Below, piece by piece: positions 966 through 47,813 of a stretch of DNA of 64,000 nt. This stretch comes from Escherichia phage 348Ecol098PP. Both the position numbers and the translations under genes were made by a program. A model generated the notes under the pieces. The model was given only the letters and a program-made list of their open reading frames with translations, did no database searches and was not told the origin of the DNA. The stretch lies in sequence record OR062947.1. The stretch is one strand, 5' to 3'. The first letter of the stretch is position 1, and each line of letters starts with the position of its first letter.

Positions 966-1013
966 GTTTACTTCTCCTCTGGATTTGGTATTATATCCAT
1001 ATCAACCAGAGGA
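966..1013 (+). promoter_or_regulatory. T4-type early promoter inside a stem-loop
   Basis: GTTTAC at 966-971, 17-nt spacer, tattat at 989-994; 9-bp inverted repeat ctcctctgg (974-982) / ccagaggag (1005-1013) brackets the -10. Confidence 0.5.
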
Positions 1014-1020
1014 GAATAAT

Positions 1021-1545
1021 ATGTTAGTTTACCGCGTAGAACGTAGTTTTTGTACTCAACGTGAATCATTACCAGGAATTGCTATCAAAGACGGTAAAGC
1101 CGTCAGAATTTGGGAAACCTCTTGGAATAAAGAACCTCGTTCGCCATACGGTTGGTCGGGCACCGACAACTCTGAAGAAACATGGGAGTTCCTTGATAAG
1201 CATGGAATACTCTCAGGTAACTTCTACCATCATGGCGACAACTATAATGTCCCTAATCGTCCTACAGTAAATGAAGACAAACTCCTTGAACAAAATATCT
1301 TAAGATACTATAGAATTGATCACTCATTTGAATTGAGTGAAGATTGGGCCCAAGGGTTCTATTTTGGATTTGAAAGTGTTGACGCGGTTTATGCATGGTT
1401 TGATGACCAGGTGGATGTTGAACTCTTGAAAGCTAAAGGATACTACATCGCGGTCTATGAAGCGCCTGATTTCATCCTCGGAAGTTGTCAATTAATGTTC
1501 AGACGTTCATTGGCAGAACAAGTTGATTTTATTTTGCTAAAATGA
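1021..1545 (+). CDS. hypothetical early protein
   Basis: ATG at 1021 preceded by gaggag RBS; the track ORF 940-1545 begins with a non-ATG codon inside the promoter, so the start is trimmed to 1021. Confidence 0.55.
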   Translation: MLVYRVERSFCTQRESLPGIAIKDGKAVRIWETSWNKEPRSPYGWSGTDNSEETWEFLDKHGILSGNFYHHGDNYNVPNRPTVNEDKLLEQNILRYYRIDHSFELSEDWAQGFYFGFESVDAVYAWFDDQVDVELLKAKGYYIAVYEAPDFILGSCQLMFRRSLAEQVDFILLK

Positions 1546-1582
1546 TGTACAACAACTATGGTCTATGATACTATAGACCTAT
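1545..1582 (+). promoter_or_regulatory. early-promoter-like element with inverted repeat
   Basis: ATGTAC -35-like at 1545-1550, tatgatactatag -10 region; inverted repeat ggtctat/atagacc at 1557-1581. Confidence 0.35.
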
Positions 1583-10184: not shown

Positions 10185-10215
10185 GTTTACAACTAAGTAG
10201 GACTATGATATAGTA
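10185..10215 (+). promoter_or_regulatory. T4-type early promoter inside a stem-loop
   Basis: GTTTAC at 10185-10190; inverted repeat gtaggacta/tagtcctat flanks the tatgatatag -10 region. Confidence 0.5.
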
Positions 10216-10240
10216 GTCCTATCTAAAAGAGGATAACATC

Positions 10241-10696: not shown

Positions 10697-10733
10697 GTTT
10701 ACAACAAGGTAGGATTATGGTATAGTAGTCCTA
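10697..10733 (+). promoter_or_regulatory. T4-type early promoter inside a stem-loop
   Basis: GTTTAC at 10697-10702; imperfect inverted repeat gtaggatta/tagtcctac around ttatggtatag. Confidence 0.5.
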
Positions 10734-10754
10734 CTGAAACATGAGGAACACAAA

Positions 10755-10957: not shown

Positions 10958-10994
10958 TTGTACAAACTCTTGAGAGCAGAGTATAATGCTCTCA
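10958..10994 (+). promoter_or_regulatory. early promoter inside a stem-loop
   Basis: TTGTAC -35-like, tataat at 10982-10987 flanked by gagagca/tgctctc. Confidence 0.45.
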
Positions 10995-11031
10995 TGGATT
11001 ACAAAAACATTAATCAATTGAGGAAATTAGC

Positions 11032-11680: not shown

Positions 11681-11817
11681 TTAAGAAAATCTTAGCAGGA
11701 GCCTTCGGGCTCTTGTTTTTGCTTACGGTTCTGTACTACGGTGTGATGTTTGGGCTAATCCAAGTAGTGCTTTTCATTTCAGATGTTATAATGGTTATTC
11801 GTTCATTAATATGGTGA
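11677..11817 (+). CDS. small membrane peptide (46 aa)
   Basis: MIKKILAGAFGLLFLLTVLYYGVMFGLIQVV...; ATGA overlap with the previous ORF. Confidence 0.35.
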   Translation: MIKKILAGAFGLLFLLTVLYYGVMFGLIQVVLFISDVIMVIRSLIW

Positions 11818-13147: not shown

Positions 13148-13248
13148 GCCTTGGAGTCGAGTTCTTGTTACTATGTATCTTTGCTGTTATTCTAGGCCTG
13201 GCGACAGGCTTAGCTATAGGTTTAATAGCAGCCCACTTTAAAAAGTAA
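13144..13248 (+). CDS. small membrane peptide (34 aa)
   Basis: MSLGVEFLLLCIFAVILGLATGLAIGLIAAHFKK; ATGA overlap with the gene 52 stop, followed by a terminator. Confidence 0.35.
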   Translation: MSLGVEFLLLCIFAVILGLATGLAIGLIAAHFKK

Positions 13249-13269
13249 GGAACCTTCGGGTTCCTTTTT
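13249..13269 (+). terminator. rho-independent terminator
   Basis: ggaaccTTCGggttcc followed by ttttt. Confidence 0.65.
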
Positions 13270-13290
13270 GTGCATTTTTCTCACAAAACA

Positions 13291-13319
13291 GTTTACATGT
13301 GCTTCAAACATGATATTAT
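13291..13319 (+). promoter_or_regulatory. T4-type early promoter (motA)
   Basis: GTTTAC at 13291-13296, 17-nt spacer, tattat at 13314-13319. Confidence 0.55.
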
Positions 13320-13358
13320 AGACCTATCAAAACAAAACAACCGAATTGGAGAAATAAA

Positions 13359-13991
13359 ATGTCTAAAGTTGCTTACATCATCAAAGCTTCCGAAAACGCT
13401 CTTAATGAAAAAACTGCTGCAATAATGGTTTACATCATTAAGAACAACTTCACCACTGCTGCCAATGTCCGTGAAGCTCTGGAAGCGGAATACAATGCAT
13501 CGGTTGTTAACTCTAACATTGGTGTATTGATTAAGAAAGGTTTAGTCGAAAAATCTGGTGATGGACTTATAGCAACAGGCGAAGCAATGGATATTATCCA
13601 AAAAGCTGCAGACCTCTTTGCCCAAGAAAATGCTCCAGAACTTCTTCAGAAACGTAACACTAGAAAAGCACGTGGAGTTACTCCTGAAATGCATGAATTA
13701 GCAAACTTTGTTTTTGAAAATATTAAAGATAAAGTTGAAGTTAAAGAAATCGGTGAAAACCGTAGTAACTTGGAAGTTCGATTTGCAAAACGAGTTCTAG
13801 GTATTCGTCAGATCGAAATTCGTCGAGATGGTTCTCTTAGAATCTTTGCATACAACATGTCAGAAACTGAATCAAAGCTGTTTACTTCTCTTGAAAATGA
13901 TGTTAAGATTAAGATCGGTGGTAAATATACTTACATTGACTTCCCTAATGTGTCCAAAGAAATCATTACCCTTGTAACTAACGTACTGTGA
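13359..13991 (+). CDS. motA: middle-transcription activator MotA
   Basis: 210-aa ORF; MSKVAYIIKAS...VVNSNIGVLIKKGLVEKSGDGLI.TGEA...AQENAPELL.KR.TRKAR matches recalled T4 MotA. Confidence 0.85.
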   Translation: MSKVAYIIKASENALNEKTAAIMVYIIKNNFTTAANVREALEAEYNASVVNSNIGVLIKKGLVEKSGDGLIATGEAMDIIQKAADLFAQENAPELLQKRNTRKARGVTPEMHELANFVFENIKDKVEVKEIGENRSNLEVRFAKRVLGIRQIEIRRDGSLRIFAYNMSETESKLFTSLENDVKIKIGGKYTYIDFPNVSKEIITLVTNVL

Positions 13992-27545: not shown

Positions 27546-27861
27546 TATTAAACCGGTTGATGAGGCCGGTTTATCTGAACAAGAATTAGCAGTAAAACAC
27601 GATAAAGATGATATCGCTAAATTGCTTGACCGACAAGAAAACGGATTCATTATAGAATCCATGGTTGAACAATTTGGTATGTCTTATTTAGAAGCAACAA
27701 CTGCGTTCTTGGAAGAAAATTCTATTCCAGAAACACAATTTGCTAAATTTATTCCTACAGGAATTGTTGAAAAAATTACAAGCGAAGCAATTGACGAAAA
27801 CATGCTTCGCCCGTCAGTTGCTCGTGGTGAAAAAACTAATACGTTAGATTTCTTATTATGA
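27523..27861 (+). CDS. 33: late transcription co-activator gp33
   Basis: 112-aa ORF; LLDRQENGFIIE.MVE.FGMSYLEATTAFLEENSIPETQFAKFIP matches recalled T4 gp33. Confidence 0.85.
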   Translation: MTQFSLSDIKPVDEAGLSEQELAVKHDKDDIAKLLDRQENGFIIESMVEQFGMSYLEATTAFLEENSIPETQFAKFIPTGIVEKITSEAIDENMLRPSVARGEKTNTLDFLL

Positions 27862-28541
27862 AATACGTTGTGTATAAAACTACCAATAAAATAAATGGTA
27901 AAATTTATATAGGCGTACACAAAAAACATAAAGAGAAAGATTGGTATATTGGATCAGGCCGCGCTATATTAGCGGCCAAAGCTAAATATGGACTAAAAAA
28001 TTTTTATACCGAAATTCTTTATGAATATGATAATGACAAGGACGCCTATAAAAAAGAAGCAGAATTGGTTAATGAAGATTTTGTTTTGCGAACTGATACT
28101 TATAACTTAGTTCCCGGTGGTAAAGGTGGCCCTGGTAAAAAACAAAGTGATGAAGCTAAAAGGGCTATTTCACTTTCTAAATTAGGTAAACCTAGATCTG
28201 AAGAGACTAAGGCTAAAGTATCTAAAACCAGATTAGAAAGAAAAATACCATCCCCTAATAAGGGTAAGAAACTATCTGAAGCTCATAAATTAGCTTTGAG
28301 TAAAGTCCGAAAAGGGCGAAAAACGAATAAGCCGATGCCTGATTCAACCAAAGAAGCTCTTAGAATAGCAAATTCAAAGCCGCATTCTAAAGAAAGAACT
28401 ATTAAAAAACAAAAACCTATAATTATTGATGGTATAAAATACTCATCATGCACAGAAGTTTCGGATGTTTTTAATATTTCTGCATCTCTAGTTACGTATA
28501 GACTTAAATCTTCAAAATGGCCTGGATGGAACTATGATTAA
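27858..28541 (+). CDS. free-standing GIY-YIG homing endonuclease (Seg-like)
   Basis: 227-aa ORF; N-terminal VYKTTNKINGKIYIGVH (GIY-YIG class), NUMOD3-like repeats (GKK.SEAHK), C-terminus IIIDGIKYSSCTEVSDVFNISASLVTYRLKS resembles the I-TevI DNA-binding tail. Confidence 0.75.
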   Translation: MKYVVYKTTNKINGKIYIGVHKKHKEKDWYIGSGRAILAAKAKYGLKNFYTEILYEYDNDKDAYKKEAELVNEDFVLRTDTYNLVPGGKGGPGKKQSDEAKRAISLSKLGKPRSEETKAKVSKTRLERKIPSPNKGKKLSEAHKLALSKVRKGRKTNKPMPDSTKEALRIANSKPHSKERTIKKQKPIIIDGIKYSSCTEVSDVFNISASLVTYRLKSSKWPGWNYD

Positions 28542-30212: not shown

Positions 30213-30234
30213 GGGAGACTTCGGTCTCCCTTTT
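30213..30234 (+). terminator. rho-independent terminator
   Basis: gggagacTTCGgtctccc followed by tttt. Confidence 0.65.
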
Positions 30235-30261
30235 GAGTATCTGTAAATTGCCGAAAAAGTT

Positions 30262-30290
30262 GTTTACTTCTTCCCTGGATGTGTTAGTAT
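30262..30290 (+). promoter_or_regulatory. T4-type early promoter
   Basis: GTTTAC at 30262-30267, 17-nt spacer, tagtat at 30285-30290. Confidence 0.5.
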
Positions 30291-30319: not shown

Positions 30320-30724
30320 ATGGAAATCGGAAAATCTTATATCATTAACCCTTTATTTAAAGATGACTTTGTTCAAGAAGCACCACACAATAACGCTAAG
30401 ATGTTAAAATTGATTGAACTCCACGGGCCTAGTTTTGTTGTAAACGGAATGGAACCTGATTATGATAGCGATACGTCAAACGTAGTAAGTGTAACTATGG
30501 AAGATGGTACTGTATGTTCTGCCGGTGGTGAAATTGAAACTTATTTTGAGATTTATCCTGACGAGTTCAAATACTTTATTGAGTACTTTACTGAGGTAAC
30601 TTTAGAAAAGCCTCAACCTACTAACGAAGGTATAACTTTAGGTGTAACAAAAATCCATTGTATCGTAGATGAAACCAACGTCGACGAAATCATCAAACTT
30701 TTGCAAAAAACTTTTAAAAAGTAG
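30320..30724 (+). CDS. hypothetical protein (frd.3 position)
   Basis: 134-aa ORF with gagga RBS. Confidence 0.55.
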   Translation: MEIGKSYIINPLFKDDFVQEAPHNNAKMLKLIELHGPSFVVNGMEPDYDSDTSNVVSVTMEDGTVCSAGGEIETYFEIYPDEFKYFIEYFTEVTLEKPQPTNEGITLGVTKIHCIVDETNVDEIIKLLQKTFKK

Positions 30725-30762
30725 TGTACAATCAGATAGGGTTATGTTATAGTAGCCCTATC
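30724..30762 (+). promoter_or_regulatory. early promoter-like element inside a stem-loop
   Basis: GTGTAC -35-like; inverted repeat gataggg/ccctatc around ttatgttatag. Confidence 0.4.
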
Positions 30763-31868: not shown

Positions 31869-32413
31869 AACAATACCAATACCTGATTAATGATATCCTA
31901 GAAAATGGTTATGAAACAGACGACCGTACAGGTACCGGCACTATTGCCCTGTTCGGAACTAAATTGCGATGGGATCTGACTAAAGGATTCCCTGCGGTAA
32001 CAACTAAGAAATTAGCATGGAAAGCTTGTATTGCCGAGCTATTATGGTTCATGTCTGGTTCTACCAATGTTAATGATTTGCGTATTCGTACTCATGGTAG
32101 TCTTATTCAAGGTAAAACTATTTGGGACGACAACTATGAAAATCAGGCAAAAGACCTTGGATATCATAGCGGCGAACTTGGTCCTATTTATGGTAAGCAA
32201 TGGCGTGATTTCGGCGGTGTAGACCAATTGGTCAAAACTATCGACCGTATTAAAGCTCTTCCTAATGATCGTCGTCAAATAGTTTCTGCATGGAACCCGG
32301 CCGAAATTGACCAAATGGCTCTTCCTCCTTGTCATATGTTCTATCAATTTAATGTGCGTAATGGTCATCTTGATTTACAATGGTACCAACGAAGTGTTGA
32401 TGTTTTCTTAGGT
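31865..32413 (+). CDS. td: thymidylate synthase, exon 1 (codons 1-183)
   Basis: TS motifs (RTGTGT, PPCH.FYQF); the ORF ends at a UAA that is the first triplet of the intron. Confidence 0.85.
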
Positions 32414-33429
32414 TAATTTAGGCCTAGGTATAAGGCGACTTATACTTGTAATCTATCTAAACGGGGAACCTCTCTAGTAGACAATCCCGTGCTAAATTGT
32501 AGGACTACCCTTTAATAAATACTTCTATATAAAAAGAGGTGTTTATGAAAAGCGGAATTTATCAGATTAAAAACACTTTAAACGGTAAAGTGTATGTTGG
32601 AAGTGCTAAAGATTTTGAGAAAAGATGGAAGAGACATTTTAAAGACCTTGAAAACGGTGTTCACTCTTCTATAAAATTTCAAAGGTCTTTTAATAAACAT
32701 GGTAATGTTTTTGAATGCTCTGTACTGGAAGAAATTCCATATGAGAAAGATTTGATTATTGAACGAGAAAATTTTTGGATTAAAGAGCTAAATTCTAAAA
32801 TTAATGGATATAATATTGCTGATGCGTCTTTTGGCGATGTGCTTTCAAATCATCCATTAAAAGAAGAAATTGCTAAGAAACGAGCTGAAACTGTTAAAGC
32901 TAAGATGCTTAAGCTTGGTCCTGATGGTCGGAAAGCTCTTTATGGTAAACACGGAAGTAAAAATGGCCGATGGAATCCAGAAAACCACAAGTTTTGTAAA
33001 TGCGGTGTTCGCATACCATCTTCGGCCGATACTTGTGGAAAGTGCCGAAAACGTTCAGGTGAAAATAACCCGTTCTTTAATCACAAACATTCAGAAAAAA
33101 CTAAAACTAAACTATCTGAAAAGATGAAAGGCAAAAAGCCAGCTAACATCAAAAAGATTTCATGCGATGGGATTATTTTTGAATGTGCAGCCGATGCGGC
33201 TAGACATTTTGAAATTTCATCAGGATTAGTTACTTACCGTGTAAAATCTGATAAGTGGAATTGGTTCTACATAAATGCCTAACGACTATCCCTTTAGGGA
33301 GTAGGGTCAAGTGACTCGAAACGATAGACAACTTGCTTTAACAAGTTGGAGATATAGTCTGCTCTGCATGGTGACATGCAGCTGGATATAATTCCGGGAT
33401 AAGATTAACGACCTTATCTGAACATAATG
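32414..33429 (+). mobile_element. group I self-splicing intron in td (1016 nt)
   Basis: Begins uaauu.aggccu..guauaaggugacuuauacuuguaaucuaucuaaacgggga and ends ...cuuaucugaacauaauG before exon 2 cuaccguu, as recalled for the T4 td intron; length is exactly 1016. Confidence 0.85.
32545..33282 (+). CDS. I-TevI: intron-encoded GIY-YIG homing endonuclease I-TevI
   Basis: 245 aa; MKSGIYQIKNTLNGKVYVGSAKDFEKRWKRH, zinc finger CKCG...CGKC, C-terminal VTYRVKSDKWNWFYINA, near-identical to recalled T4 I-TevI. Confidence 0.85.
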   Translation: MKSGIYQIKNTLNGKVYVGSAKDFEKRWKRHFKDLENGVHSSIKFQRSFNKHGNVFECSVLEEIPYEKDLIIERENFWIKELNSKINGYNIADASFGDVLSNHPLKEEIAKKRAETVKAKMLKLGPDGRKALYGKHGSKNGRWNPENHKFCKCGVRIPSSADTCGKCRKRSGENNPFFNHKHSEKTKTKLSEKMKGKKPANIKKISCDGIIFECAADAARHFEISSGLVTYRVKSDKWNWFYINA

Positions 33430-33741
33430 CTACCGTTCAACATTGCCTCGTACGCTGCCTTGACGCATATTGTAGCGAAGATGTGTAACCTTATCCCAGG
33501 TGATTTAGTGTTCTCAGGCGGCAACACGCATATCTACAGCAATCATGTAGAACAATGCAAAGAAGTTCTTCGTCGTGAACCTAAAGAGTTATGTTCTCTT
33601 GAAATTAATTGGCCTAGTAATTTTGAGAATTGGCCTACAAAAATCCAAATGGACTGGGTTACTGGAACGATGACATATTCTGATTTCGTTCTTAAAAATT
33701 ACGAATCACATCCAGCTATCAAAGCTAAAATGGCGGTATAA
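33430..33741 (+). CDS. td: thymidylate synthase, exon 2 (codons 184-286)
   Basis: Continues in frame as LPFNIASYA...; exon 1 plus exon 2 gives 286 aa, the T4 TS length. Confidence 0.85.
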   Translation, partial: LPFNIASYAALTHIVAKMCNLIPGDLVFSGGNTHIYSNHVEQCKEVLRREPKELCSLEINWPSNFENWPTKIQMDWVTGTMTYSDFVLKNYESHPAIKAKMAV

Positions 33742-36394: not shown

Positions 36395-37070
36395 ATGAGT
36401 ACAGTTTTTAACACACAACAAGTCGATGTTTTGAATGAACCGATGTTCTTTGGTTCTGGTCTTGGCCTTGCACGTTACGATATTCAACGACATAAAGTTT
36501 TTGAAGAGCTTATCGAAAAGCAGCTCTCGTTCTTTTGGCGTCCCGAGGAAGTAAACTTGATGTTGGATTCGGCCCAGTTTAATAAGCTTCCACAGTTCCA
36601 ACAGGACATCTTTACCAACAACCTTAAGTATCAATCATTATTAGATTCTATCCAAGGTAGAGCACCATCTGCGGTACTTATGTCATTGCTTTCAGACCCT
36701 TCATTAGATACATGGGTTGCTACATGGACTTTCAGTGAAACTATTCACTCTCGTTCATATACTCATATTATGCGAAATCTTTATACAGATCCATCGAAGG
36801 TGTTTGATGAGATTGTATTAGATGAAGCTATTATGAAGCGTGCCGAATCTATCGGACGATATTATGATGATGTTCTGGTTAAAGCTCGTTATTGGGAAAA
36901 CGCTAAAGCTGATATCGAATACCAAAAAGAAATTAATGCAGACGAAGACGTTATTGAAGATGCTATTGAGCATGAGACATATTGGAAGCGTGAGCTAATG
37001 AAATCTCTTTACCTTTGCCTCCATGTAATCAACGCATTGGAAGCTATTCGTTTTTATGTATCTTTTGCGT
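36395..37070 (+). CDS. nrdB: ribonucleotide reductase beta subunit, exon 1
   Basis: ATG at 36395; matches recalled T4 NrdB through ...LEAIRFYVSFA; the last exon nucleotide T37070 starts the split Cys codon. Confidence 0.8.
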
Positions 37071-38161
37071 AAAATGCGCCTTTAAACGGTAACGTTTATC
37101 GAAAACTCCTTTAATTGCTGGAAAGTCCTTTATAGGAAAACTAGCAGCCAAGGTTTTGCTTGCACCTTTAATTAGTATAATATAAATATGATTATACTTT
37201 TAAGAGGATGCACAATTGAACTATAGAAAAATTTGGATAGATGCTAACGGACCTATACCTAAAGATTCTGATGGAAGAACATACGAAATCCATCATAAAG
37301 ACGGTAACCGTGAAAATAATGATTTAGATAATTTGATGTGCCTTTCTATACAGGAACATTATGATATACATTTAGCTCAAAAAGATTACCAGGCTTGTCA
37401 TGCTATAAAGCTTAGAATGAAATATTCTCCTGAAGAAATTTCTGAATTAGCTTCTAAAGCCGCAAAATCTAGAGAAATCCAGATTTTTAATATCCCTGAA
37501 GTACGAGCTAAAAATATTGCCTCTATTAAATCTAAGATAGAAAATGGTACATTTCATCTTTTAGGTGGTGAAATACAACGTAAATCTAATTTAAATAGAG
37601 TTGCATTAGGTATACATAATTTTCAACAAGCTGAGCATGTTGCAAAAGTCAAAGAACGTAATATTGCAGCTATAAAAGAAGGTACTCATGTATTTTGCGG
37701 TGGTAAAATGCAGTCAGAAACTCAATCAAAACGGGTAAATGACGGTTCACATCATTTCTTATCAGAAGACCATAAGAAAAGAACATCAGCAAAAACATTA
37801 GAAATGGTTAAGAACGGGACCCATCCTGCACAAAAAGAAATCACATGTGATTTCTGCGGTCACATTGGTAAAGGTCCTGGATTTTATCTAAAACATAATG
37901 ACAGATGTAAATTAAATCCAAATAGAATTCAATTGAATTGTCCATATTGTGATAAGAAAGATTTATCACCATCAACATATAAACGATGGCACGGCGACAA
38001 TTGCAAAGCAAGGTTCAACGACTAGTCTTCGGACGTAGGGTCAAGCGACTCGAAATGGGGAGAATCCCTCTGGGATTGTGATATAGTCTGGTCTGCATAG
38101 TAATATGTAGCAGTTCATAAGAGAACGGGTTGAGAATTAGCGAGCTCAATCGAACATAACG
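37071..38161 (+). mobile_element. group I intron in nrdB (about 1091 nt) carrying an HNH endonuclease ORF
   Basis: Interrupts NrdB between ...YVSFA and C-TFNFHKNMEIMEG; ends in G before exon 2 gtaccttt; boundaries inferred from the protein junction, so plus or minus a few nt. Confidence 0.75.
37216..38025 (+). CDS. I-TevIII: intron-encoded HNH homing endonuclease (full-length I-TevIII-like)
   Basis: 269-aa ORF with HNH motif EIHHKDGNRENNDLDNL and C-terminal Cys clusters; apparent TTG start at 37216 after aagagg RBS. Confidence 0.7.
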   Translation: MNYRKIWIDANGPIPKDSDGRTYEIHHKDGNRENNDLDNLMCLSIQEHYDIHLAQKDYQACHAIKLRMKYSPEEISELASKAAKSREIQIFNIPEVRAKNIASIKSKIENGTFHLLGGEIQRKSNLNRVALGIHNFQQAEHVAKVKERNIAAIKEGTHVFCGGKMQSETQSKRVNDGSHHFLSEDHKKRTSAKTLEMVKNGTHPAQKEITCDFCGHIGKGPGFYLKHNDRCKLNPNRIQLNCPYCDKKDLSPSTYKRWHGDNCKARFND

Positions 38162-38664
38162 GTACCTTTAACTTCCATAAGAACATGGAAATCATGGAAG
38201 GTAATGCCAAGATTATGAAGTTCATTGCTCGTGATGAACAGCTCCACCTCAAGGGCACTCAATATATTATTCGTGCTTTACAAGATGGCGAAGACGGTGA
38301 TGAATGGGTCAAAATTGCTCAAGAGTGTGAACAAGAAGCAGTTGATATTTTCATGGAAGTTAACGCTCAAGAAAAAGAATGGGCTGAACACTTGTTTAAA
38401 GATGGTGCTCTTCCAGGTCTAAATGTTAAAATCCTAAGTGAATTTGTGGATTATCTTACCGTGTCTCGTATGCGTAGTTGTGGTCTGCCATGTCCTCTTA
38501 AAGACGTATCAACTCGTCATCCTATTCCATGGATTCGTGAGTATTTGAACTCTGATTTGGTTCAAGCAGCTCCTCAGGAAGTTGAAATCAGTTCTTATCT
38601 TGTCGCACAAATTGATAATGATGTAGACCAAAATGTAATCAATTCATACAAAAAATATTTCTAA
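38162..38664 (+). CDS. nrdB: ribonucleotide reductase beta subunit, exon 2
   Basis: In-frame continuation (C)TFNFHKNMEIMEGNAKIMKFIARDEQLHLKGTQYIIR; combined protein about 392 aa. Confidence 0.8.
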
Positions 38665-38690: not shown

Positions 38691-39101
38691 ATGAAAGATA
38701 TTGCCGCCGAATATTCCTTTATTAAATATACAGAATTGGAGCTATTAGAAGATGCAACAATTAAAACAGTTGATGTCCCTAATAAGAAAAATGTCATATA
38801 CGCTATTGCTATAGATGACGAACTTGTGTATATTGGTAAAACCAAGAATTTAAAGAAACGCATTAACTATTATCGAACAGCCATAAATCGAAAAGACCAG
38901 ACTTCAGATTCAAGAAAATCACTTATGATTTTGGATGCCTTAATGCAAGGCAAAAAGGTTGAATTCTGGGCCCGCCAATGTTTTGACCTTTCAGTCACCA
39001 ACGAACTTGGTTCAATGACCATCGCAACAATGGACCTTGAAGAACCGCTTTTTATCAAAAAGTTCAACCCGCCTTGGAATATCCAACATAAGAAAAAGTA
39101 G
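38691..39101 (+). CDS. denA: endonuclease II
   Basis: 136-aa ORF, same length as T4 DenA; GIY-YIG-like VIYAIAIDDELVYIGKT; position between nrdB and rnlA. Confidence 0.75.
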   Translation: MKDIAAEYSFIKYTELELLEDATIKTVDVPNKKNVIYAIAIDDELVYIGKTKNLKKRINYYRTAINRKDQTSDSRKSLMILDALMQGKKVEFWARQCFDLSVTNELGSMTIATMDLEEPLFIKKFNPPWNIQHKKK

Positions 39102-39130
39102 TTTACATACCACAAGGATTGTGGTACAAT
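39101..39130 (+). promoter_or_regulatory. T4-type early promoter inside a palindrome
   Basis: GTTTAC at 39101-39106; palindrome taccacaa-gga-ttgtggta; tacaat at 39125-39130. Confidence 0.5.
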
Positions 39131-39148: not shown

Positions 39149-40282
<1,134 letters not shown>

Positions 40283-40344
40283 TGGTTTACAAACACCAAG
40301 GAAGGTGTTACTATGGCTTTTATCAACAACACGAGGAGAAAATT

Positions 40345-40845
40345 ATGAATATGCAATTGATTACTAACGATATGGTCGTAACCGCTTTTGGAGACACAAC
40401 TGACGGAATCCGGGTCTTTAAGAAAGGACGTCCAGTTGGTTATCTTACGGACCTACGTGTTACACTAGCGAAAAATGCTAAAAAGAAGTTAAAGCAAAAG
40501 GAATATTCAACACGTTACACCGAAGAGAAACGTGAAGCGATGCCGGAAGCAGTTAATGCCATGGTAGAATTTCTTCAAAACAATTTGACTAAATATGACG
40601 CTAATGTGTTCATTAATATTAGTCAACCAAACGTACATATCGCAGGTATAAAATTCTACATTATTTGCGACCCTCTTACCGACAAATTCAACCGTCTCGG
40701 AATCTCAAGTCCATATCATACAGCAGAAGAGTTGTGTGTATTGTTTGAATCGTACAAAATCCAGTGTGATGGTTTGAAAACCGTTCTTATCAATGGATTG
40801 TCCCGAGATGAAATCATTGAGATTATTAAAACATGCTTAAAGTAA
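40345..40845 (+). CDS. alc: Alc, inhibitor of host transcription
   Basis: 166 aa from the ATG at 40345 (aggag RBS); size and position match T4 alc; sequence identity not verified from memory. Confidence 0.55.
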   Translation: MNMQLITNDMVVTAFGDTTDGIRVFKKGRPVGYLTDLRVTLAKNAKKKLKQKEYSTRYTEEKREAMPEAVNAMVEFLQNNLTKYDANVFINISQPNVHIAGIKFYIICDPLTDKFNRLGISSPYHTAEELCVLFESYKIQCDGLKTVLINGLSRDEIIEIIKTCLK

Positions 40846-41476: not shown

Positions 41477-41691
41477 CTAAAGAACAGCATGAATACATTA
41501 AAGGGCTTATCTATGAATCTGAAATGGCGGCTATGATTTATGGACGCCAGATTCAACGATTAGAATCTTTGCCTCCGACTAATGACCGCTTGTTAGTTCA
41601 GTCTCGTGCTAATCTGAAAAATGAATATCAGAATAAGTGGGCAGTAGCGACTAAAGCTCTTCATGAGTATATTGAATCTTTAGTAAAATAG
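41467..41691 (+). CDS. hypothetical protein
   Basis: 74-aa ORF. Confidence 0.45.
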   Translation: MSMTKEQHEYIKGLIYESEMAAMIYGRQIQRLESLPPTNDRLLVQSRANLKNEYQNKWAVATKALHEYIESLVK

Positions 41692-41720
41692 TTTACAAAC
41701 TCTCGGGAGCAGAGTATAAT
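41691..41720 (+). promoter_or_regulatory. T4-type early promoter inside a stem-loop
   Basis: GTTTAC at 41691-41696; tataat at 41715-41720 flanked by ggagca/tgctcc. Confidence 0.5.
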
Positions 41721-41748
41721 GCTCCTATGGATAATTGAGGAAATCTAA

Positions 41749-42047
41749 ATGAAAACATTACTAGAGAATTACATCAAACGGTCTGATGAGTATATTGATA
41801 TCTGCCGTGGAATGTCACTTGTCGATTATGACAAAGATGCAGCAAAGGCACTAGATGAAGCAGGTAAAGCTCTTCGTAAAGCTGCTAAAGAAAAAGGGTT
41901 GGATTTGCAACAACTCAAAAGTCATATGATTAAATTTATTTCTTCAAACGTTAGAAGTACGTCAATTAATAAAAACGTTGCTGAAATTAATAAAGACCGG
42001 CGCGAGCATAACATTCGTATTCTTGAAACTTTCTTAGGAATAAAATA

Positions 42048-43816: not shown

Positions 43817-43850
43817 GTTTACAACATGGTGGAGTTGTGATACTATAACT
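43817..43850 (+). promoter_or_regulatory. T4-type early promoter inside a stem-loop
   Basis: GTTTAC at 43817-43822; imperfect inverted repeat ggtggagtt/aactctacc around gtgatactata. Confidence 0.45.
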
Positions 43851-43874
43851 CTACCAACAAATGAGGAAATAGAA

Positions 43875-47245: not shown

Positions 47246-47267
47246 GGGAGACTTCGGTCTCCCTTTT
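47246..47267 (+). terminator. rho-independent terminator
   Basis: gggagacTTCGgtctccc followed by tttt; identical hairpin to the one at 30213. Confidence 0.65.
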
Positions 47268-47299
47268 GTGCGTTTAGGGCAGAAAAAGTTTAAAAAGAT

Positions 47300-47328
47300 G
47301 TTTACTCTCCTGTAGGATGTGTTACTAT
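47300..47328 (+). promoter_or_regulatory. T4-type early promoter
   Basis: GTTTAC at 47300-47305, gtgttactatag -10 region. Confidence 0.5.
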
Positions 47329-47743: not shown

Positions 47744-47772
47744 GTTTACTTTGGTACAGGTTATGTTATTAT
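47744..47772 (+). promoter_or_regulatory. T4-type early promoter inside a stem-loop
   Basis: GTTTAC at 47744-47749, tattat at 47767-47772; inverted repeat ggtacagg (47753-47760) / cctgtacc (47776-47783). Confidence 0.5.
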
Positions 47773-47813
47773 AGACCTGTACCAACAAACAACTTAAACA
47801 TCTGGAGAATAAA

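Follow-up and report, generated by a model that had tools for sequence, protein, structure and literature searches.

The 64,000-nt stretch of Escherichia phage 348Ecol098PP analyzed here (sequence record OR062947.1; hereafter, the window) contains a series of early promoters whose -10 regions are bracketed by inverted repeats. What is a hairpin doing inside a promoter, and does it act in DNA or in RNA? A sequence-only reading had counted such repeats in at least ten of about sixteen GTTTAC-type early promoters and likened them to the promoter early stem-loop (PeSL) cassettes of other T4-type phages, adding that they share a dispersed repeat and could shuffle early gene modules. The analyses below identify composite promoter/stem-loop cassettes of the PeSL kind and lead us to favor, with modest confidence, a stem that is most likely an RNA element of read-through transcripts from the upstream gene and a substitute for a terminator. 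The first 6 kb of the window is 97-98% identical to Mosigvirus (RB69-like Tevenvirinae) genomes such as S143_2, G53, NBG1 and ST0.

Nine early promoters carry strong embedded stems

Both strands of the window were searched for early promoters, with a regular expression and then with a position-weight scan. The latter returned 18 strong predicted promoters on the + strand and no hit on the - strand. They have an A-rich upstream region, GTTTAC, a spacer of 17-19 bp, a (TGn)TAnnnT hexamer region and a start region of the form nCCTAyCAAC, and as sequence motifs all 18 match the sigma70-type early promoter with AT-rich upstream region that is part of the PeSL definition. Each is followed 26-44 nt downstream by a Shine-Dalgarno (SD) sequence plus ATG, and most begin a few nucleotides from an upstream stop codon. 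Nine of the 18 contain a strong stem of 9-13 bp that joins the spacer to the -6..+6 region, and one more stem is marginal, in keeping with the count proposed earlier. The nine strong elements are all intergenic (stop codon -1 to 12 nt from the -35, ATG 26-44 nt past the -10). These promoters and their hairpins are listed below with folding free energies (dG, kcal/mol) and z-scores against shuffled sequences; ORF denotes an open reading frame.

966..1023, + strand: promoter cassette upstream of the 174-aa ORF 1021-1545; -35 GTTTAC 966-971, -10 TATTAT 989-994
973-1015, + strand: hairpin of the 966 cassette, outer arms TCTCCTCTGG / CCAGAGGAGA; dG -21.8, z -5.66
Inside the 3' arm of the 966 hairpin, + strand: SD sequence GAGGAG of the 1021 ORF
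1545..1579, + strand: promoter upstream of cef; -35 ATGTAC 1545-1550, -10 TACTAT 1569-1574
1560-1579, + strand: hairpin of the 1545 promoter, GGTCTATG / TATAGACC; dG -9.5, z -3.18
10185..10222, + strand: promoter with 10-bp hairpin 10197-10222; -10 TATAGT 10209-10214; dG -13.2, z -3.05
10697..10735, + strand: promoter with 11-bp hairpin 10708-10735 containing one U.G pair; -10 10721-10726; dG -13.6, z -4.01
10958..10998, + strand: promoter upstream of ndd; -35 TTGTAC 10958-10963, -10 TATAAT 10982-10987
10968-10998, + strand: hairpin of the ndd promoter, core GAGAGCA / TGCTCTC; dG -13.9, z -3.99
30724..30762, + strand: promoter upstream of frd.1 (DUF5417); -10 30748-30753; 11-bp hairpin 30735-30762; dG -16.3, z -6.31
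39101..39130, + strand: marginal element, promoter upstream of rnlA; -10 39125-39130; 8-bp hairpin 39108-39126; dG -8.3, z -2.32
41691..41731, + strand: promoter of a 99-aa ORF; -10 TATAAT 41715-41720; hairpin 41701-41731, core GGGAGCA / UGCUCCU; dG -12.2, z -2.92
43817..43856, + strand: promoter upstream of a cd.3-like ORF (DUF7320), ortholog of T4 Pe133295; -10 43841-43846
43827-43856, + strand: hairpin of the 43817 promoter, 13 bp with a G.U pair; dG -16.9, z -5.64
47744..47785, + strand: promoter upstream of a gene 30.7 homolog; -10 47767-47772; dG -17.9, z -4.88
47751-47785, + strand: hairpin of the 47744 promoter, GGTACAGG / CCTGTACC plus inner pairs

Every arm quoted in the sequence-only reading is present in the window, in its place or displaced by 1-3 nt. 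The pair it gave at 10197 does form a hairpin but is not an exact reverse complement; the true 8-bp arms are TAGGACTA / TAGTCCTA, which extend to the 10-bp stem 10197-10222. Likewise, the 39108-39126 hairpin exists but does not bracket the -10; its place is in the spacer, from which it reaches no further than the second nucleotide of the -10 hexamer. The hairpin-bearing elements 10697 and 43817 were missing from its list.

The stems are stronger than chance and consensus allow

The RNA of each promoter (spacer, -10 and 18 nt) was folded and compared with 200 dinucleotide shuffles, a check that had been proposed in advance. The nine embedded stems all scored z <= -2.9 (-2.9 to -6.3), the 39101 and 40285 promoters scored -2.3 and -1.5, respectively, and values of about 0 were obtained for 13291, 15789, 26289, 30262, 47300, 48829 and 54655. 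The energies were bimodal: nine promoters folded at -9.5 to -18 kcal/mol and the remainder near the level of chimeric promoters. The chimeras, in which the spacer of one promoter is fused to the -10 and downstream part of another so that the consensus is kept, served as a stricter null because both arms of the stem overlap weakly conserved promoter positions. Against them, the mean minimum free energy (MFE) of the native promoters of the window was -9.98 versus -5.92 +/- 0.59 kcal/mol (z = -6.9), and none of 5000 permutations was as low. A scan of the whole window with Rfam 15 gave 0 matches at gathering score.

The excess extends beyond the window. We assembled a cross-genome panel of IMG/VR loci around rIIB, gene 32 and pseT, which holds few Mosigvirus relatives and is mostly cross-genus. 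The 92 distinct promoter cores that it yielded from non-Mosigvirus T-even genomes, early strand only, had a native mean MFE of -8.74 versus -4.93 +/- 0.25 for their chimeras (z = -15.5). Phage T4 itself gave 11 matrix hits between 120 and 169 kb with a chimera z of -4.2, and stems at predicted starts ~146107 (-15.2), 133295 (-16.3) and ~129883 (-16.1 kcal/mol). Predicted start 133295 is also where the T4 record places early promoter Pe133295, an agreement that validates the scan. The same record (L109, NC_000866) notes 14 nt at 133300-133313 as the 'inverted complement of previously reported sequence', correcting Pe133295. This stretch falls within the Pe133295 hairpin region, and the hairpin may have caused its mis-orientation in early sequencing.

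Because the register of the stem relative to the -10 varies between promoters (-2.5 to +7.5), covariation could not be scored column by column over all of them; we used one register class and relied mainly on the chimera test. In the largest class (27 promoters), 10/13 pairs had changes on both sides and the covariation score was 0.528 versus 0.269 in shuffled data (0/500 as high) and ~0.12-0.20 when the partner was slid. The 27 rows were pre-selected for folding, which biases the fraction of paired positions but not the diversity of pair types. Selection on the stem is seen most cleanly, as judged from sequence comparison, at the site upstream of frd.1. There, 21/22 distinct T-even lineages have a promoter in which a stem of -14 to -21 kcal/mol is embedded. 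The lineages share 44-100% protein identity, and arms and registers differ between them (for example, GATAGGG/CCCTATC, AGGGCTAT/ATAGCCCT, GTTGATAGGGT/ACCCTATCAAC and GGTGTAGAGG/ACTTCTACACC). The stems are, in other words, selected for pairing and not for sequence.

These data also bear on a non-adaptive origin, in which the self-complementarity of the promoter consensus (..AGG.. / ..CCT..) was perfected by quasipalindrome-templated mutation and the stem is a by-product. Both arms do overlap weakly conserved consensus positions, and even chimeras fold to ~-6 kcal/mol. Native stems are, however, far stronger than chimeras and bimodal in energy, they obey the context rule described below, and the orthologous frd.1 site keeps its stem in 21/22 lineages despite full turnover of arm sequence and register. 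A by-product is, in our opinion, hardly probable. We also considered a sequence-specific operator for a dimeric repressor, which is ruled out by arms that are wholly different between promoters.

Two window promoters are alike in an unusual way. The ndd promoter (10958-11030) and the promoter of the 99-aa ORF (41691-41750), 30.7 kb apart, have in common the core AAACTCTnGnGAGCAGAGTATAATGCTCnnATGGAT; between them an A-U pair of the stem is exchanged for G-C, a compensatory change, and a G-C pair for G.U. The same core is found in a T4-like contig (L108 9159).

Embedded stems stand where the upstream gene abuts the promoter

In what surroundings does a promoter carry a stem? To place stems in their context, promoters were clustered at 80% identity, giving 50 clusters across genomes. 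The stop codon of the upstream ORF lay within 25 nt of the -35 in 20/20 strong-stem clusters versus 17/30 others (p = 5.5e-4). Conversely, a canonical terminator with a U-tract was present within 90 nt upstream in 0/20 strong-stem clusters versus 10/30 others (p = 0.0034). The stem-less window promoters 13291, 30262 and 47300 illustrate the second arrangement, each lying 25-45 nt downstream of a UUCG-tetraloop terminator:

13247..13319, + strand: separate-hairpin cassette of motA; UUCG-tetraloop U-tract terminator 13247-13266, -35 13291-13296, -10 13314-13319; no embedded stem, z +0.25
30213..30290, + strand: separate-hairpin cassette; gene 32 terminator GGGAGACTTCGGTCTCCC plus TTTT 30213-30230, -35 30262-30267, -10 30285-30290; no embedded stem, z +0.71
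47246..47328, + strand: separate-hairpin cassette; 18-nt terminator 47246-47263 identical to that at 30213, -35 47300-47305, -10 47323-47328; no embedded stem, z +0.18

The 18-nt UUCG-tetraloop terminator GGGAGACTTCGGTCTCCC is thus present twice, 17 kb apart (30213-30230 and 47246-47263), followed each time by TTTTG and, ~30-35 nt further on, an early promoter; with its promoter it is the terminator-plus-promoter form of the cassette.

In the reading that we favor, the promoter part is nothing unusual for a T-even phage, namely a strong early promoter of the sigma70 type, and the stem-loop would act in the sense-strand RNA transcribed into the cassette from the upstream gene. There it would replace a separate terminator hairpin, serving as a barrier to exonucleases at the 3' end, as a weak attenuator or insulator, or as both. 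If the upstream stop codon is too close for a separate hairpin, the hairpin would be built from the promoter's own spacer (5' arm) and -6..+6 region (3' arm). The promoter's own transcripts lack the 5' arm and would therefore be unstructured at that place.

The original PeSL proposal goes further and takes the stems for efficient intrinsic terminators that make each small gene a separate transcription unit. The one PeSL stem-loop tested experimentally, RB49 PeSL211/210, was indeed a strong terminator in a lacZ assay (PMC2839356), and embedded stems and separate canonical terminators are mutually exclusive in the window, as replacement of one by the other would predict. Yet no U-tract follows any embedded stem, with 0-3 T in the next 8 nt for each of the 20 representatives of the clusters and each of the 9 elements of the window, and a consensus terminator scanner did not call the embedded stems on the + strand. 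Lacking the U-tract, the stems fail the defining feature of intrinsic terminators; furthermore, the true terminators of the window are GC-rich UUCG stems followed by TTTT, whereas the embedded stems are AU-rich near the loop. From these sequence features a terminator role for the embedded stems looks doubtful, and we consider efficient intrinsic termination an unlikely explanation. The scanner flagged two of the stems on the - strand, but as terminators of antisense transcription these were rejected, for the - strand folds are weaker and the tail GTTGTAAAC is not a U-tract.

Strand asymmetry points to RNA

The + strand folded 2.3 kcal/mol better than the - strand (49 versus 13 elements, p = 1.7e-5). 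When outer stems were scored symmetrically, G.T and A.C quasi-pairs numbered 17 versus 8, in contrast to a ratio of ~1:1 in chimeras. The asymmetry favors sense-strand RNA as the molecule in which the stem is formed. With DNA parameters the hairpins were weak (-3 to -10 kcal/mol, loops of 8-14 nt), and those of the - strand weaker still.

It is against this evidence that a DNA-level structure has to be set, be it a cruciform or the target of a structure-specific factor at the -10, which would make the promoter sensitive to supercoiling or serve to shut off early promoters. The repeat is centered on the AT-rich -10, the variable arms exclude a sequence-specific operator but not recognition of structure, and early-promoter shut-off has been described as not understood. 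The weakness of the DNA hairpins and the greater tolerance of the sense strand for G.T than for A.C wobble speak against it. So does the context: stems are found only behind an abutting ORF and never behind a terminator, and a promoter-intrinsic DNA device would require neither. Stems also occur in only about half of the early promoters. We rate a DNA-level function as highly unlikely. We give as little credence to a bolder proposal that the -10 inverted repeat is a DNA-level or co-transcriptional switch (a cruciform, or a displaced-strand hairpin on read-through) that silences the embedded promoter and aids the unexplained rapid early shut-off, or to its milder version as a general rule, whereby every T-even early promoter is hairpin-insulated and the hairpin moves inside the promoter when space is short. 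Phage N4 has a dedicated virion RNA polymerase, which reads its promoters in the form of extruded hairpins. These promoters, like engineered cruciform-regulated ones, resemble the window elements in having an inverted repeat at the promoter. Unlike those of N4, the window promoters fit the host sigma70 consensus in duplex form, and a role at the RNA level is what the evidence indicates.

Several points weigh against an RNA element of read-through transcripts. Within the window alone, neither context association is significant (p = 0.47 and p = 0.21, respectively); significance arises only across genomes, where the clustered promoters are not fully independent. The 17/30 weak-stem clusters that also abut an upstream ORF indicate that a nearby upstream ORF, although required, is not enough for a stem. 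The G.T/A.C asymmetry of the outer stems is suggestive only, and the larger strand asymmetry includes G.U pairs that are forced by the TGn/-10 consensus. The sequences themselves show the promoter motifs, the stems with their excess over consensus, the retention of stems through sequence turnover, the context rule and the missing U-tract; we infer the RNA-level function, the transcription start positions, the read-through and the 3' ends alike; literature searches for genome-wide maps of T4 5' and 3' ends found nothing usable. Finally, the strong termination by RB49 PeSL211/210 leaves some probability to a true termination role despite the missing U-tract.

At position 966 the stem includes the Shine-Dalgarno sequence

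One of the stems differs from the others in what it pairs. At 966, UCUCCUCUGG in the spacer is paired with CCAGAGGAGA, the SD sequence of the 1021 ORF (dG -21.8). In read-through RNA the SD has a predicted probability of 0.00 of being unpaired, as against 0.54 in transcripts that begin at the promoter itself. With the SD held in the 3' arm, read-through RNA is predicted to be untranslatable and promoter-proximal RNA translatable. The 966 element would thus represent a second subclass, in which the 3' arm is the SD, the downstream gene is not translated from read-through RNA and the promoter's own transcript alone serves as its message.

An SD in the 3' arm combined with a 5' arm upstream of the internal start, the arrangement of hairpins that sequester a ribosome-binding site (RBS), was found at 966 only, and the clear SD-sequestering type accounts for 1/18 window cassettes. 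In each of the remaining eight strong elements, ~15-25 nt separate the end of the 3' arm from the SD, whose accessibility is little altered; the accessibility values for 10185, 13291 and 40285 are model-dependent. General SD sequestration across the cassettes was considered and set aside as convincing for 966 only. In other T-evens the anti-SD arm pairs co-vary (CTCCTCTGG/CCAGAGGAG, CTCCATTAG/CTAATGGAG and CTCCTCATG/CATGAGGAG), and the 966 design recurs there with co-varying linker bases, as in the latter two pairs. The T4 genes e, soc, 49 and I-TevI have RBS-sequestering hairpins with an internal promoter (PMC3014915), and the 966 element is like them in having the 5' arm upstream of the internal start and the SD in the 3' arm. 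Unlike the T4 cases, which use late (or middle) promoters to split early and late expression, the internal promoter at 966 is early and the upstream transcript is likewise early.

The shared repeat is mainly promoter consensus

Are the cassettes also copies of one mobile repeat? The 18 cassettes, aligned over 84 columns, have a mean pairwise identity of 46% and a maximum of 65%. Column-shuffled versions of their consensus match this mean and reach 61% at the 99.9th percentile, so the separate dispersed repeat proposed earlier does not stand. The string on which it was based, TATAGACCTATCAA(A/C)AC, occurs exactly at 1572 and 13317 but with one mismatch at 30288 (three matches versus 0.01 expected by chance). 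The shared 17-mer TATAGACCTATCAAMAC corresponds to the -10 plus the start-region consensus nCCTAyCAAC, and is also found in other T-even genera. Given its presence there and the consensus-level identity, the 'dispersed repeat' is mainly the extended promoter consensus. For the same reason, the cassettes of this genome offer little for homologous recombination to act on, except after a recent duplication of the kind seen in phage ST0.

In ST0, gene 52 and motA are separated by an extra 71-aa ORF (L002 13334-13549), on either side of which stands a copy of the motA promoter-SD-ATGTCTAAA cassette. The two copies are direct repeats of ~80 bp and nearly identical:

ST0 L002 13257-13342 and 13578-13663: the two cassette copies
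Window 13282-13367: the single copy

At window ~13368, homology is lost in several other Mosigvirus records. A second case is L048, where the 30320-30724 gene is accompanied by a tandem paralog and a cassette separates the two. In addition, the early promoters at 11740 and 12429 of a T-even contig (L035), ~690 bp apart, have nearly identical hairpin-bearing cores, with full identity from spacer through start region, which suggests a recent tandem duplication of a promoter-plus-gene module. The other indels between the window and ST0 are homing-endonuclease insertions away from cassettes:

27861-28533: insertion relative to ST0 with a GIY-YIG/I-TevI-like seg-type ORF 27858-28541, between genes 33 and 59
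32413-33430: insertion relative to ST0 with an I-TevI-like ORF 32539-33282, inside td
37068-38162: insertion relative to ST0 with an HNH ORF 37216-38025, inside nrdB

Those in td and nrdB are probably group I introns; no Rfam match at gathering score was found for either.

Freshly duplicated cassettes, then, can recombine. Could recombination be the purpose of the stem-loop, as a crossover or excision site for PeSL mini-circles, with any RNA role secondary? One RB49 mini-circle junction was mapped to the loop (Arbiol et al., 2010; PMC2839356), and the indels in ST0 and L048 are flanked by cassettes. The ST0 cassettes are, however, of the stem-less motA type and repeat through the SD and first three codons, so that plain homology suffices, and the window cassettes are alike only at the consensus level. 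Moreover, cassettes fill nearly all of the intergenic space, and any gene-sized indel must therefore end in one; the association alone is no proof that cassettes drive exchange. A recombination device seems to us quite improbable. The two cassette-bounded indels in close relatives do lend support to the proposed shuffling of early modules.

Relation to known cassettes and terminators

PeSL cassettes are known from phi1/RB49 (Arbiol et al., 2010; PMC2839356) and from PST/T4 and nt-1/KVP40 (Comeau et al., 2014; PMC4122927). The window elements have the structure by which PeSLs were defined, as the sequence-only reading had recognized: a sigma70-like early promoter, A-rich upstream, with a stem-loop, located between a stop codon and an SD/ATG in front of small accessory ORFs (PMC2839356, PMC4122927). 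They are also alike in their indels between close relatives and, for phi1/RB49, in the commonest position of the stem, between -35 and -10 or overlapping the -10. The PST/T4 PeSLs were described with the stem just upstream of the promoter (PMC4122927), whereas the window and T4 show both forms here, many bracketing the -10. The window differs in belonging to the Mosigvirus (RB69-like) lineage, which neither paper treats, RB69 not being mentioned in PMC2839356, and in arms that are variable and partly drawn from the conserved start region rather than G-tract/C-tract. It further differs in the absence of a U-tract and in cassette identity at the consensus level only.

The second relevant comparison is with two kinds of hairpin in T4 mRNAs, Rho-independent terminators and the intercistronic C(UUCG)G elements. 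These are likewise sense-strand hairpins directly after a coding region, and they and the embedded stems substitute for each other before early promoters. The embedded stems differ from them in having neither U-tract nor UUCG tetraloop; their loop is the -10 hexamer.

Gene order and neighboring features

The annotation of ST0, syntenic over the 64 kb, gives the gene order as motB, cef, 39, rIIA, rIIB, denB, ndd, 52, motA and asiA, followed by a late tail-fiber block on the opposite strand and then rnh, 59, 32, frd, td, nrdA/B, denA, rnlA, alc, pseT, cd, 31, rIII, 30 and alt. This order identifies the + strand of the window as the early-gene strand. Promoter 26289 is the first to follow the divergent late genes. 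PeSLs are expected chiefly in hyperplastic regions, among small ORFs without known function; in the window, the genes downstream of cassettes encode 66-174 aa and have no Pfam match or match DUF families only.

Two promoters have features of separate interest. In the ST0 annotation, the alc gene (window 40282-40845; ST0 L003 5204-5767) begins at the rnlA stop codon and encodes 187 aa, which would place the early promoter 40285 inside the coding region. An alternative start with SD and ATG at 40345 gives 166 aa, and T4 Alc has 167 aa; the longer annotation in ST0 is probably wrong. In the spacer of the motA early promoter, TGCTTCA at 13300-13306 matches the MotA-box core TGCTT(t/c)A, and other T-evens have TGCTTTA at the equivalent position of orthologous motA promoters. 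The box lies 7 nt from the -10, too near for the geometry of a middle promoter, making it conceivable that it might be an autoregulatory MotA site.

Implications for T-even early genes

The main addition of this work is quantitative support and a context rule for the PeSL concept, not a new category of element. It extends the PeSL architecture to RB69-like phages and, in the -10-bracketing form, to T4. The rule that we propose is that an early promoter has either an upstream U-tract terminator or, where a gene abuts it, a U-tract-less hairpin made from its own spacer and start region. Such an overlapping code of promoter and RNA structure is relevant to the annotation of T-even genomes and to their engineering, for an edit of the promoter spacer would also be an edit of the RNA hairpin of the upstream message. 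It bears, too, on how the densely packed early genes of these phages stay semi-independent.

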